64,000 bases of DNA from a virus, in the IMG/VR virus record IMGVR_UViG_2687453534_000001. The stretch is one strand, 5' to 3'. The position numbers and the translations under genes are program-made. Under the pieces are notes generated by a model. That model did no database searches. It was given only the letters and a program-made list of their open reading frames with translations, and was not told where the DNA came from. This document shows, one piece after another, positions 13,288 through 20,745 of the stretch. Within the stretch, counting starts at the first letter, position 1; every line of letters starts with the position of its first letter.

Positions 13288-13511
13288 GCGCCAAGACTAT
13301 CCGCGCGCGCGAGATCGCCAATGAGGTTCGCAACGACGCCGCGACTGATGTCAAGAACTTCGACGGCCGTGAGCTGACTGGGCGACTGGTCGGCGAAATC
13401 AATGGCAATACCAACGGTCTCATCGTCGGTCTGGCCAATTGTATAGAGACGTTGGCGACCGAGATCGAGCGGCTTGAGAATCGGATGCCCCCTCAACAGG
13501 GGTGGTGGTGA
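13284..13511 (+). CDS. Hypothetical protein
   Basis: GTG start in GTGA overlap. 75 aa. Confidence 0.5.
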   Translation: MSAKTIRAREIANEVRNDAATDVKNFDGRELTGRLVGEINGNTNGLIVGLANCIETLATEIERLENRMPPQQGWW

Positions 13512-14224
13512 TGTTCACCTATTCCACATGCGTCACGTGCAACACGATCATGATCGTTACAGACCACGACCAGCGTCAGCACCCGGAGTGTGCAGAGAAC
13601 GCGCCAGCACCAACCCTGACGCGTGTGGAACAGTTGACCGAAAAGCTGCGCGCGACGGTCCATGTGGGCGACCAGCATGAGCTGGAGGCGCGAATAGAGG
13701 CTGAGCTGAAAACAATCGATGAGCAGCCTCCAGCGCTGGGGCTTTCGGCGCTTTTCTACGCCACCGAGTACGGCTGGCCCGTGTTCCCACTGGAGGTGGG
13801 CGGGAAGCGGCCAGCGATCGCGAAAAAAGACGGCGGGAACGGTTTCAAGGATGCGACGACCGACCCTGAGCGCATCAAGAAGTTCTGGACCAAACACCCG
13901 CTATGCAACATCGGCATACCGACCGGCATCCACTTCGATGTGATCGATGTAGACGTGCCTGATGGTTGGTTGTCGTTGCGCGACATGCTTAATGAGGATC
14001 GCGTACCGGATGTTCATGGCCGCGTGGCCACCTCATCTGGTGGCGTGCACCTACTCATCGAACCCACTGGCGACGGCAACTCAGCACGCATCGCACCCGG
14101 TATCGACTACCGCGGCGCGGGTGGCTATGTCGTCGCGCCACCCTCACGAATAGACCCCCAGCACCGCTGGTCGTGGACGGTCAAGCCGTCACCGAAAGTA
14201 AAGGGAGAGAGAAACAATGAATGA
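13511..14224 (+). CDS. Bifunctional primase-polymerase (Prim-Pol) N-terminal-domain protein
   Basis: ALFYATEYGWPVFPL...GKRP...GFKDATTDPERI...NIGIPTG...VIDVDV...SGGVHLL...DYRGAGGYVVAPPS. GTG 13502 is an alternative start. Confidence 0.8.
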   Translation: MFTYSTCVTCNTIMIVTDHDQRQHPECAENAPAPTLTRVEQLTEKLRATVHVGDQHELEARIEAELKTIDEQPPALGLSALFYATEYGWPVFPLEVGGKRPAIAKKDGGNGFKDATTDPERIKKFWTKHPLCNIGIPTGIHFDVIDVDVPDGWLSLRDMLNEDRVPDVHGRVATSSGGVHLLIEPTGDGNSARIAPGIDYRGAGGYVVAPPSRIDPQHRWSWTVKPSPKVKGERNNE

Positions 14225-17924: not shown

Positions 17925-19571
17925 GTGACGGCGATGAGTGACGAAAACAATGACGAGACGGTAACGCCACCGCCCGAAGACAATGGCGGTCAGGTCATCT
18001 CATTCAAAGAGCGCATGCGCGGATTCCGCGGAAGCGACACCGAGCCACCACCGGCACCACGGCGCGCGACGCCTGTCGAATTCATCGGTGACGATCGCTA
18101 CGGTCGCGCCGCGATGGAAAAGGAGCTGGCGATCCTGGCCGCGACGCCAGAGGGTGCGCGCAACCAACAGCTCAACACCTCCTCATTCAGCCTCGCTGGC
18201 CTGGTGCGCGCCGGAAGGATCGACGAACAGACGGCCATCAACAACCTGGTGAGCACGGCGCGGTCGATCGGCCTGGCCGAAAGCGAGATCATGCCGACGA
18301 TCCGGTCGGCTTTCCGCGGTAGTGACGCCAAGGTCGGTGCGCGGCAGGTGCCCGAACGCGAGGAGATACCAGCGGCGTTCACCATCGACCCGAATGACCC
18401 GCTGAGTGTCCCGGCTGATTCTGCTGATGCGTCGGATGTCGCGGCGGCCGAGATCAGCGACGACGAGGCAGAGCGACTACTGGCGCACCATAGGCGCGTC
18501 CAGCAGTCCGCATACGACCTCCGCGTGTCAGACGAAGGCCGAGCGCTCTACGCGGCCCAGCAGGCGCATGAGCTAGGTCAAACTGCGCCAGATCCGGTGT
18601 CGCTGACCGACTTCTTGAGCATTCCCGATGAGGACGCCGTCTATCGCATCGGTGAGCTGCTCCCGGTTGGTGGCCGCGCGCTACTGGCGGCCCAGTACAA
18701 GGCCGGCAAGACGACGATGATGGCCAACCTGCTGCGCTCGTTGGCCGATGGTGTGTCGTTCCTCGGGAAGTTCCCGACGACTCAGGTTGAGCGGGTCACT
18801 GTGATCGATACCGAGCTAGATGAGCGCATGTTTCGCAGATGGCTACGCGCGCAGGGTATTCAGAACACCGAACGTGTGCAGGTGCTTCCGATGAAAGGCC
18901 ACCTCGCGACGTTCAACATCATCGACCCGAGCACCCGTGCATCCTGGGCGGCCAAGCTACATGGGTCGGACTTCATCATCCTGGACTGCCTACGGCCCTG
19001 TCTGGATGCCCTCGGGCTCTCGGAGGACAAGGACGCCGGTAAGTACCTGGTCGCCTGGGATGCGTTCGTGGCCGAGACCGGAGCCGACGAGTCGATCGTG
19101 GTGCACCACATGGGGCACAGCGCCGAGCGCAGCCGCGGCGATTCCCGGCTGCTCGATTGGCCGGACGTGCTCTGGAAGATCGTGCGGGAGCAGGCCGAGG
19201 AAGGGGAGGACCCGGCAGCCGATGGGGGTAAGCGATTCTTCTCGGCGCACGGGCGAGACGTGGCGGTCGCCGAAGGTTTGCTGGAGTACATCCCGGAGAC
19301 TGGCGGGCTGCTGCTACATGAGGGTGGCCGAGCGGCAACGAAAGCGCGCGACGGGCTGCCGCTGGTGGTGCAGATTCTCTCTGATCCCGAGTTCATCGGC
19401 GGCCTTGGCATGCGAGCGCTGACCGCCAAACTGGGCGAGAGCGGTGTCGGTTTCCATGCCGCGCGCAAGATCATCAAGACCGCGATCGAGGAGTCCGTCA
19501 TTCTCGTCGGTGAGGGTGCCCGTAACGCCAAGGTCATGACATTGAACCCATCTGCGGCGAGGTGGTCATGA
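17925..19571 (+). CDS. Primase C-terminal (PriCT) plus RecA-like NTPase (RepA/DnaB-like replicative helicase)
   Basis: N-terminal ...ATPEGARNQQLNTSSFSLAGLV... (PriCT-like). Walker A AQYKAGKTTMMANL. FIILDC Walker B-like. Confidence 0.8.
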   Translation: MTAMSDENNDETVTPPPEDNGGQVISFKERMRGFRGSDTEPPPAPRRATPVEFIGDDRYGRAAMEKELAILAATPEGARNQQLNTSSFSLAGLVRAGRIDEQTAINNLVSTARSIGLAESEIMPTIRSAFRGSDAKVGARQVPEREEIPAAFTIDPNDPLSVPADSADASDVAAAEISDDEAERLLAHHRRVQQSAYDLRVSDEGRALYAAQQAHELGQTAPDPVSLTDFLSIPDEDAVYRIGELLPVGGRALLAAQYKAGKTTMMANLLRSLADGVSFLGKFPTTQVERVTVIDTELDERMFRRWLRAQGIQNTERVQVLPMKGHLATFNIIDPSTRASWAAKLHGSDFIILDCLRPCLDALGLSEDKDAGKYLVAWDAFVAETGADESIVVHHMGHSAERSRGDSRLLDWPDVLWKIVREQAEEGEDPAADGGKRFFSAHGRDVAVAEGLLEYIPETGGLLLHEGGRAATKARDGLPLVVQILSDPEFIGGLGMRALTAKLGESGVGFHAARKIIKTAIEESVILVGEGARNAKVMTLNPSAARWS

Positions 19572-19589
19572 CGCTGCGGAGATGCTTCG

Positions 19590-19745
19590 ACTGTTTCAGT
19601 GTTTCAGTCAGTGAAACAGTCGAGTTGAAACAGTCAGCACGGTGTGTGACTGGCGACTGTTTCAGAAACCCTAAAGGGTTTCTGAACACAGGTCGCGAAA
19701 CAGTCACCCCGTTCACCGTATGGCTGACCGGCCCGAAACAGTGGA
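19590..19745. repeat. Iteron array (at least 7 copies of GAAACAGT/ACTGTTTC in both orientations) plus palindrome CAGAAACCCTaaAGGGTTTCTG; candidate origin of replication
   Basis: Copies near 19591, 19601, 19613, 19627, 19657, 19697 and 19735, in the non-coding gap immediately downstream of the helicase gene. Confidence 0.6.
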
Positions 19746-19893
19746 TGAAACCCATCCGCGATGTGTTGGGTGGTCTCGCGTTCACGTTGGGTGGCCTCGT
19801 TGTGGCATCCACATCAAGCGCTGGGACATCAATCATCAACCGGCGTGTGATTGAGCGTCGGGAGTCGAAACAACGCTCCAGGGAGGTTCTGGG

Positions 19894-20361
19894 ATGTCTC
19901 ACGCAGTGAACCCGTCGCCAGGTGGCGGACTACCCCCGCCGTTCGTGTCCTTGTTCGTGCCGGGTAAGGCAGCGCCCCAAGGGTCCAAACGTCACGTAGG
20001 CCGCGGCGTGCTGGTGGAAAGCTCCAAGGACCTCAAGCCGTGGCGGTCTGAGGTCGCATACTTCGCTCAGCGAGCGATGTCCGGTCGGCCGATCTACACC
20101 CAGACACCGTTAGCTGTCGAACTCGGTTTCGTCATGCCGCGGCCAACATCGGCGCCCAAAACCAAAACGCCTCCGGCCATCAAACGGCCCGACACCGACA
20201 AACTGGAGCGGGCCATTCTGGACGCTCTGACGCATGTCGTCTATGACGACGATTCGGTGATCATCGATCTGCACGGGCGAAAACGAATCGCCGAGATAGG
20301 CGAGACGCCTGGCGTATCCATCTTCGTCACCCCGGTGGACGAGGCGGGCTGGAAATGGTAG
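19894..20361 (+). CDS. rusA: RusA-like Holliday junction resolvase
   Basis: GGGAGG RBS. VPGKAAPQGSKR...SSKDLKPWR...MPRPTS...KPDTDKLERAILDAL...DDDSVIIDL. Confidence 0.85.
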   Translation: MSHAVNPSPGGGLPPPFVSLFVPGKAAPQGSKRHVGRGVLVESSKDLKPWRSEVAYFAQRAMSGRPIYTQTPLAVELGFVMPRPTSAPKTKTPPAIKRPDTDKLERAILDALTHVVYDDDSVIIDLHGRKRIAEIGETPGVSIFVTPVDEAGWKW

Positions 20362-20501: not shown

Positions 20502-20745
20502 AGAATTCGAGGCGGCCTACGAGGGTCACTGTTTCGACTGCGGCGAGATGATCGCAGTCGGTCAGCACGTCGTCTATGACGATGACGGCGATCTGGTGCA
20601 TGCCGGGTGCTACAACGATCCAACATCATTCGACCCCAACGGCGATGACGAGGTGCGCTATGTCAAGTTTGTCGAGGTCAAAGAGCGCGACGACCAAAAA
20701 CCATGCGAGGCATGTCATCTAGTCCATGCAGGTGAGTGTTTCTGA
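20491..20745 (+). CDS. Small zinc-ribbon-like protein
   Basis: HCFDCGEMI...HAGCYND. Confidence 0.5.
   Translation: MPSREFEAAYEGHCFDCGEMIAVGQHVVYDDDGDLVHAGCYNDPTSFDPNGDDEVRYVKFVEVKERDDQKPCEACHLVHAGECF

Follow-up and report, generated by a model that had tools for sequence, protein, structure and literature searches.

An 8-bp Iteron Array Behind the AAA_25 Helicase Gene as a Likely Replication Origin of the Mycobacterial Prophage McProf

Introduction

Where does a mycobacterial prophage start to copy its DNA, and which of its proteins recognizes the place? Lytic origins of mycobacteriophages are essentially unmapped. The question is raised here by a compact array of 8-bp repeats (iterons) immediately behind a putative helicase gene, gp35, in the viral record IMGVR_UViG_2687453534_000001. 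The DNA analysed, referred to below as the window, is 64,000 nucleotides long and 100% identical to Mycobacterium phage McProf (BK061309.1), a full 68-kb cluster MabR prophage of M. chelonae ATCC 35752. All positions are those of the window; the BK061309.1 coordinate equals the window coordinate minus 942. Over this stretch four relatives from M. abscessus are 96% (prophiFSAT01-1), 90% (FSIL01-1), 83% (FVLQ01-1), and 77% (FSQJ01-1) identical.

We consider it likely, by analogy with known initiator-helicase origins, that the array at 19587–19742 is the replication origin of McProf, most probably the lytic one, because its initiator-helicase architecture is the same as in the Rep-ori of the Staphylococcus aureus pathogenicity islands (SaPI) and the alpha-ori of P4. 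The initial annotation had read these iterons beside the helicase as a candidate origin, and its reading is supported by the conservation of the repeats, by their linkage to the helicase gene in 58 of 63 distant loci, by a winged helix predicted in the helicase, and by a covariation of residues with bases. The assignment as an origin is itself drawn from the analogy.

The Iteron Array and Its Conservation

Within 153 bp (19590–19742) there are six exact copies of the 8-mer GAAACAGT and one near copy, distributed over both strands (Table 1). The initial annotation had counted at least seven copies, which holds if one mismatch is allowed and fails for seven exact ones; it was right that they occur in both orientations, as exact GAAACAGT is found at two sites on the minus strand and four on the plus strand, and that they directly follow the helicase stop, the first iteron beginning 18 bp past it. 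The 8-mer is expected 1.6 times in the whole 64 kb, and the count of 7 was reached in 0 of 100 shuffles. When all 8-mers were scanned, 19480–19800 turned out to be the sole stretch of the window with at least four copies per 200 bp. This rules against a functionless chance cluster or a recently expanded simple repeat: 8-mers can indeed cluster through slippage, yet these units are near-invariant between spacers that have diverged by 33–39%, and equivalent arrays recur in dozens of unrelated genomes, so that this explanation is effectively refuted and keeps only a negligible probability.

Read on the plus strand, the McProf iterons have the form A(C/G)TGTTTC, in the register AGTG-NNNN of the helicase family. 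The array is composed of a left set of two forward units facing two reverse ones, a central pair around a dyad, and one outlier. Iteron 2 abuts iteron 1 at the 8-bp period typical of the family, and the iterons at 19656 (minus) and 19697 (plus) stand in opposite orientation on either side of the palindrome with its AT-rich centre. The spacings of 8, 15, 14, 29, 41, and 38 bp reveal no clean 10.5-bp helical register.

Comparison with the two divergent prophages separates the repeats sharply from their surroundings. Only 2 of 112 iteron bases differ (56 bases in the array) vs. 85 of 234 intervening bases (Fisher p = 7e-15); the iterons are thus about 20 times better conserved than the spacers. 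Taken together with the lack of a coding signature described below, this conservation shows that the repeats are a DNA-level rather than a protein-level element.

The initial annotation was correct in noting a palindrome, the perfect arms of which are, however, 12 bp and not 10 bp long. The palindrome is part of an imperfect stem of about 20 bp over 19653–19696, with a folding energy of −17.4 kcal/mol (z = −6.2) as single-stranded DNA. Its symmetry is conserved rather than its sequence: McProf has CAGAAACCCT-aa-AGGGTTTCTG, prophiFSQJ01-1 has CAAGAACCCT-aa-AGGGTTCTTG, and prophiFVLQ01-1 has CAAGTTTTCTC-ata-GAGAAAACCTTG, the last two carrying compensatory substitutions, and all three variants fold with z of −5.8 to −6.6. 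The left dyad has arms of 15 nt (19587–19601 and 19609–19623) that are 93% complementary, with a folding z of −4.9. The array is among the approximately 1% of windows lowest in GC, with 40% GC over 40 bp (38–46% locally) as compared to a mean of about 60%.

One exact copy of GAAACAGT lies outside the array, at 20528–20535 on the minus strand, inside a coding sequence in the context GGTCACTGTTTCGACTGCGG (HCFDCGE-type codons). It is kept in four of the five MabR prophages and absent from prophiFSQJ01-1. This copy was considered as a second origin site resembling crr of P4 and rejected, as it sits in codons of a coding sequence and is missing from prophiFSQJ01-1; it is probably coding-driven or due to chance.

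Table 1. Positions of the iterons, dyads, and genes discussed in the text (window coordinates).
Feature	Position	Strand	Remarks
Iteron 1	19590..19597	−	GAAACAGT on the minus strand; ACTGTTTC on the plus strand, the forward orientation of the family
Iteron 2	19598..19605	−	One mismatch (GAAACACT; AGTGTTTC on the plus strand)
Iteron 3	19613..19620	+	GAAACAGT
Iteron 4	19627..19634	+	GAAACAGT; GCAACAGT in prophiFVLQ01-1
Iteron 5	19656..19663	−	Left flank of central dyad; exact GAAACAGT
Iteron 6	19697..19704	+	Right flank of central dyad; exact GAAACAGT; GAAACACT in prophiFSQJ01-1
Iteron 7	19735..19742	+	Right-hand outlying unit; exact GAAACAGT
Left dyad	19587..19623		Iterons 1–2 facing iteron 3 (TCGACTGTTTCAGTG / CAGTGAAACAGTCGA)
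Central dyad	19653..19696		Perfect palindrome 19661–19686, 12-bp arms TTCAGAAACCCT aa AGGGTTTCTGAA; centre CCCTAAAGGG
gp35, putative initiator-helicase	17925..19571	+	GenBank product "DNAB-like dsDNA helicase"; Pfam AAA_25, E = 5e-21
gp35 C-terminal region, predicted winged helix	19329..19559	+	Residues 469–545; recognition helix 510–522
GenBank gene 36 (PROPHIMCPROF_36)	19568..19909	+	113 aa, hypothetical; BK061309.1 coding sequence over the whole gap
gp23, Prim-Pol primase/polymerase	13511..14224	+	Pfam Prim-Pol, E = 2e-33; 3.7 kb upstream of gp35

Linkage of the Array to the Helicase Gene in Actinobacteria

The gp35 helicase family comprises 711 actinobacterial proteins at E ≤ 1e-10. Eighty genome loci were taken from one-per-species genomes, and the strongest 8-mer cluster on either strand was determined for each locus of about 7 kb. 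A cluster of at least four copies was found in 63 distant loci, and for 58 of these it falls between −60 and +350 bp relative to the end of the helicase match, a placement with a chance probability of about 0.07 per locus (binomial p = 3e-62). The distance from the stop codon to the start of the cluster is 0–45 bp in 28 loci.

The sequence of the repeat varies by lineage (AGTGCGCC, AGTGCGTC, AGTGTCCC, AGTTCGTC, AGCTCGTC, GTGTTGCG, and others), and the layout recurs: tandem 8-bp units past the stop codon, inverted units around a TAAAG/TATAG/TTAG centre, then one or two outliers. The McProf orientation pattern, ++--+--, is near that of the M. bohemicum locus L018 (++---+---, where the central dyad has one more reverse unit on either side), and the dyad centre CCCTAAAGGG is identical in L029 and one base off in L036 and L069.

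The loci deviating from this picture are of several kinds. The helicase frame runs 100–500 nt across the iterons in L021, L023, L029, L036, L049, L097 (in which P0120 is the called gene), and about 20 others; this is either a 3′ coding end, as in lambda O, or a spurious frame arising from high GC. No 8-mer cluster was detected in the ~7-kb loci L012 (Arthrobacter sp. HY1533), L038, L040, and L046, each of which carries a helicase homologue; the L012 homologue, P0086, has Ser at the covarying position discussed below and a divergent C-terminal tail. The sites in such loci may be degenerate or longer, or the origin may have been lost there.

Many homologous modules, as in L091 (1–3500), L093 (1–3700), L095, and L096, directly follow a tyrosine integrase gene and a small gene of the HTH_17 (Xis/AlpA-like) type. 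The order integrase, regulator, replication gene, origin is how small integrative islands or satellites are arranged, rather than full prophages. A search of the plasmid database gave a single match, the 15,865-bp circular Rhodococcus qingshengii plasmid pDJL3 (L090, NZ_CP025962.1). Its genes include those for an integrase, a terminase, a tape-measure protein, and a gp35 homologue (47.5% identity); about 670 bp downstream of the latter, behind an inserted gene, lies an iteron cluster of five copies (~2280–2432). The plasmid looks like an excised, replicating phage-like or satellite element.

A tblastn search of the phage database with gp35 returned full-length relatives only inside cluster MabR, and a scan of IMG/VR for the iteron pair recovered only the four known MabR prophages, adding no diversity.

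The Helicase gp35 and Its C-Terminal Domain

The protein comprises an N-terminal helical domain with an RNxxLN motif (residues ~58–136), a RecA-fold AAA_25 core (~225–465), and a C-terminal domain. The initial annotation had labelled the N-terminus PriCT; this label does not hold, as PriCT_1 is matched with only E = 0.16 and 12 bits vs. a cut-off of 21.1, and the significant domain is AAA_25. An AlphaFold (AF2) model was built on 24 homologues. In this model the C-terminal domain (469–545) has the order H-H-beta-H-H-beta-beta with a pLDDT of about 90, and the N-terminal domain (58–136) is also confident. On this basis the C-terminal domain is predicted with confidence to be a winged helix. A Pfam search with the C-terminal domain alone gave no match, nor did a search of PDB sequences with the family profile.

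Foldseek places the hexameric helicase RepA of RSF1010 (1olo, 1nlf, 1g8y) on top, with E of about 1e-7 and a TM score (target) of 0.63, followed by DnaB; RecA and KaiC are also among the best PDB matches. The helicase gp35 is RepA/DnaB-like with a fused, predicted DNA-binding domain, and hence probably itself the initiator. Within MabR the recognition helix reads F-H-A-A-R-(K/R)-(I/V)-I-(K/Q)-T-A-I-(E/D)-E-S while the whole of gp35 falls to 76% identity, and this constancy matches the invariance of the iterons.

As to priming, some homologues have a Prim-Pol domain fused to the helicase (PF09250+PF13481) and in some relatives Prim-Pol lies directly upstream; gp23 is the probable priming partner of gp35. 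Residues 59–163 of gp35 (window 18099–18413) resemble regions of Prim-Pol proteins from other mycobacteriophages in tblastn (DS6A gp85 and prophiGD12-2 gp32, 38–47% identity). McProf's own gp23 is short (237 aa), so the helicase may have acquired a primase accessory domain.

Covariation of Helicase Residues with Iteron Bases

The C-terminal domains of 50 loci were aligned against their iteron consensus. The base at iteron position 7 varies with the residue that aligns with F510 of gp35 and stands at the N-terminal end of the recognition helix: it is T in 12 of 12 loci with Gln and C in 18 of 18 loci with Arg or Lys (Fisher p = 6e-8, related sequences being counted as independent). The sole non-Gln locus with T at this position is McProf itself, which has Phe. 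The Phe-His type pairs with ..TGTT.., namely A(C/G)TGTTTC in McProf and GTGTTGCG in L018, L091, and L093.

In a neighbour-joining tree of the helicase core the Gln and Arg/Lys states are interleaved, with switches in at least six sister pairs (L065/L067, L051/L070, L029/L036, L049/L023, L019/L081, and L045/L027). The association between residue and base is therefore not one inherited event. Six more loci were fetched after the rule had been formulated and picked by protein type only. They gave five clean confirmations and one mixed case: among the Gln type, three have AGTTCGTC, AGCTCGTC/AGTTCGTC, and AGTGCGTC, the Lys-type locus has AGTGTTCC, and the Arg-type locus (A)GTGGCCC.

This covariation is the strongest available evidence that gp35 itself would bind the array. 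In our view the array is very probably the cognate site for the winged helix of gp35.

Alternative Explanations of the Array

The alternative that survives best, and is still unlikely, is that the array is a regulatory or copy-control site, acting as a roadblock or repressor of transcription into RusA and the downstream genes, or by initiator titration or handcuffing, the true origin being elsewhere. The array does lie between two genes of a co-directional early operon, winged-helix domains of this shape are mostly transcription regulators, no long AT tract accompanies the array, and plasmid iterons also serve copy control. Against this, a scan of 19300–20100 for promoters and terminators gave nothing. 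The array is tied to the 3′ end of the helicase gene in distant loci whichever gene comes next, a second cluster that could be the "real" origin was not found in the 64-kb window, and inverted units around a meltable dyad match helicase-loading origins.

Much less probable is another kind of cis-acting site, such as a packaging site (pac/cos), a centromere for partition, arm sites of a recombinase, or a double-strand origin of the rolling-circle type with its nick in the hairpin loop. Such sites can be clustered short repeats or hairpins, and the central hairpin is conserved as a structure. However, the terminase genes are about 8.4 kb off (from window 28004), neither ParA/ParB nor an HUH Rep nuclease was seen among the annotated neighbours, and across distant loci the element accompanies a replicative helicase and Prim-Pol rather than terminase, integrase, or partition genes.

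It is slightly less probable still that the region is a protein-coding gene, the repeats being incidental or encoding a repeated peptide. Between the helicase stop (19571) and the start of RusA (19894 or 19906) the gap measures about 320–335 bp, in agreement with the 320 bp given in the initial annotation, and GenBank fills it with gene 36, whose ATG start codon overlaps the helicase stop within ATGA and which is open in all five MabR prophages. The initial annotation saw no convincing open reading frame (ORF) here. That judgement is sound in so far as coding signature is lacking; an ORF does exist and is annotated, and "low-complexity artefacts", the description applied to the frames of this gap, is not apt. 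The dN/dS of gene 36 against the divergent relatives is 0.63–0.91, as compared to 0.09–0.19 for the helicase and 0.14–0.22 for RusA, and its substitutions are spread evenly over the three codon positions, with no third-position excess. At the three positions its GC content is.51/.53/.60, where the helicase, gp34, and RusA have about.65/.47/.75. The opposite strand is just as open. The prophiFVLQ01-1 indels (+4/−1/+1/−1) recode about 65 residues while the DNA is still alignable, and the iterons occupy all three codon phases on both strands. Neither gene 36 nor gp34 has a match in Pfam or PHROGs. In a 57%-identical relative with the same helicase–RusA synteny the gene caller leaves the 296-bp gap empty, and the equivalent gap is likewise left empty in further relatives. 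On this sequence evidence, gene 36 and its counterparts in the four other MabR records are probably a mis-annotation over a non-coding origin region.

Several observations weigh against the array being the origin, or against details of its recognition by gp35. In 27 relatives the helicase frame is open across the first iterons, and the boundary between gene and array is uncertain there. In the MabR prophages, too, the ORF over the array stays open and the ATGA overlap is kept; low-level translation through the array is therefore possible. The AT-rich stretch at the array is short, and the early region has AT-richer ones. Cumulative GC skew, a check suggested by the initial annotation, climbs smoothly through the array with no inflection and is uninformative. 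The later Gln-type locus L094 is mixed G/T at position 7 (GGTGCG(G/T)C). Finally, the non-independence of related sequences affects the covariation statistics, which are backed by the sister-pair switches and the prospective test on six loci.

Proposed Mechanism and Its Significance

If the array is the origin, gp35 would act as a superfamily 4 (SF4) RecA-fold hexameric helicase whose own C-terminal winged helix reads the 8-bp A(C/G)TGTTTC iterons. Its protomers on oppositely oriented iterons would assemble on either side of the central dyad, and the dyad, with its centre CCCTAAAGGG, would melt or extrude and serve as the melting and helicase-loading site. The helicase rings would then load themselves without a separate loader, gp23 Prim-Pol would prime, and the host polymerase would extend. 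We infer physical binding, melting, self-loading, and origin firing.

Beyond McProf, we lean towards the view that the array is one case of an undescribed, widespread actinobacterial module. In this module an SF4 AAA_25 helicase would be its own initiator and loader, with a C-terminal winged helix and 8-bp iterons (C)AGTG-NNNN located 3′ of the gene around a TAAAG/TATAG dyad, and with a code readable from sequence: Gln for T, Arg/Lys for C, and Phe-His for TGTT. In the literature on iterons in connection with mycobacteriophages, AAA_25, Prim-Pol, actinomycete integrative and conjugative elements, or self-loading helicases, no description of such a module was found, the coverage of this search being not exhaustive. 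The paper on cluster MabR does not mention replication, and in reviews of the integrative elements of actinomycetes the replication modules associated with Prim-Pol are called uncharacterised. The AAA_25 family was still described as being without known function in 2022 (PMC8965321).

If confirmed, the module would correspond, with a RecA-fold motor, to the AAA+ self-loading helicases known from SaPIs, SCCmec, and P4, and a function would be assigned to a large part of the AAA_25 family. A family of 711 uncharacterised proteins would be linked to a testable role as self-loading initiator-helicases, exercised in prophages, in small islands linked to integrases, and in at least one plasmid across Actinobacteria, and the predicted rule of protein–DNA recognition could be tested by a single-residue swap. 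The helicase and iteron cassette of about 2 kb would be a candidate for a minimal replicon on which to build vectors in Mycobacteroides abscessus and M. chelonae, and a possible target of incompatibility or interference in phage therapy. The GenBank annotation of gene 36 would be corrected as well.

Other Features of the Region

Between the last iteron and the RusA start there is a direct repeat, GTTGGGTGG(T/C)CTCG, at 19765–19778 and 19786–19799, the two copies being 21 bp apart. It is only partly conserved in the divergent relatives, and may be a second site of protein binding or have no function. The only Rfam match was a chance sub-threshold one to a miRNA. A DnaA-box-like ATCCACA at about 19810 was dropped as a candidate, since it is not conserved in the MabR alignment. 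Positions 1–942 of the window are the host (M. chelonae) flank beside the prophage attachment site, and the McProf record begins at 943.

Comparison with Known Replication Systems

The closest parallel is the Rep-ori of SaPIs and phage-inducible chromosomal islands (PICI), reportedly described by Ubeda et al. in 2007 and 2012. In this experimentally established system a self-loading helicase-initiator with a C-terminal winged helix acts on 6–12 iterons located directly 3′ of rep, and an AT-rich centre of the origin separates iterons of opposite orientation (Qiao et al. 2022, PMC9371898). McProf shares with it the iterons just 3′ of the helicase ORF, the predicted C-terminal winged helix, and the opposed iterons around an AT-rich centre; in both, a primase gene is nearby or fused, and specificity differs between elements. 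The two differ in the motor, which in SaPI Rep is an AAA+ (SF3/MCM-like) 3′–5′ helicase, whereas gp35 is a RecA-fold AAA_25 protein with RSF1010 RepA/DnaB (SF4) as the best match. Iterons are 5–6 bp long in SaPIs and 8 bp in McProf, the McProf primase is an AEP-type (archaeo-eukaryotic primase) Prim-Pol encoded upstream, and McProf is a full prophage, while a SaPI is a satellite.

The alpha protein of P4 combines primase and SF3 helicase in one chain, and its C-terminal winged helix reads octamer iterons in both orientations. P4 has neither a separate initiator nor a separate loader; besides ori it requires crr, a second cluster of iterons at a distance of about 4.5 kb. McProf resembles this system in having 8-bp iterons in both orientations and a winged helix fused to the helicase, with no sequence relationship. 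Unlike P4, it has no crr-like second cluster in the window, and the gp35 motor is not SF3. The McProf array would thus work like a SaPI or P4 origin but is a member of neither family.

In RSF1010 the iterons are direct repeats of about 20 bp, bound by a separate protein, RepC, and the RepA helicase has no DNA-binding tail. The likeness to RSF1010/IncQ lies in RepA being the closest solved structure to the gp35 core, in the possession of its own helicase and its own primase (RepB′), independent of the host, and in an oriV with iterons. The differences are that in McProf the DNA-binding domain is fused to the helicase and that the iterons are 8 bp long and occupy both strands.

Lambda O is an organiser only, which needs P and host DnaB, and its iterons of about 19 bp are located mid-gene. 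The lambdoid O-ori and the lactococcal P335-type origins are similar to McProf in that the iterons are coupled to the gene of their binder and lie beside an AT-rich region; as in the lambdoid type, the helicase frame covers the first iterons in about 27 gp35 relatives. The large T antigen of SV40 and E1 of papillomaviruses are initiator-helicases that act as two hexamers on inverted short repeats around a central palindrome. Both are SF3 helicases of eukaryotic viruses, their origin-binding domains are unrelated, and the likeness to McProf is one of logic only.

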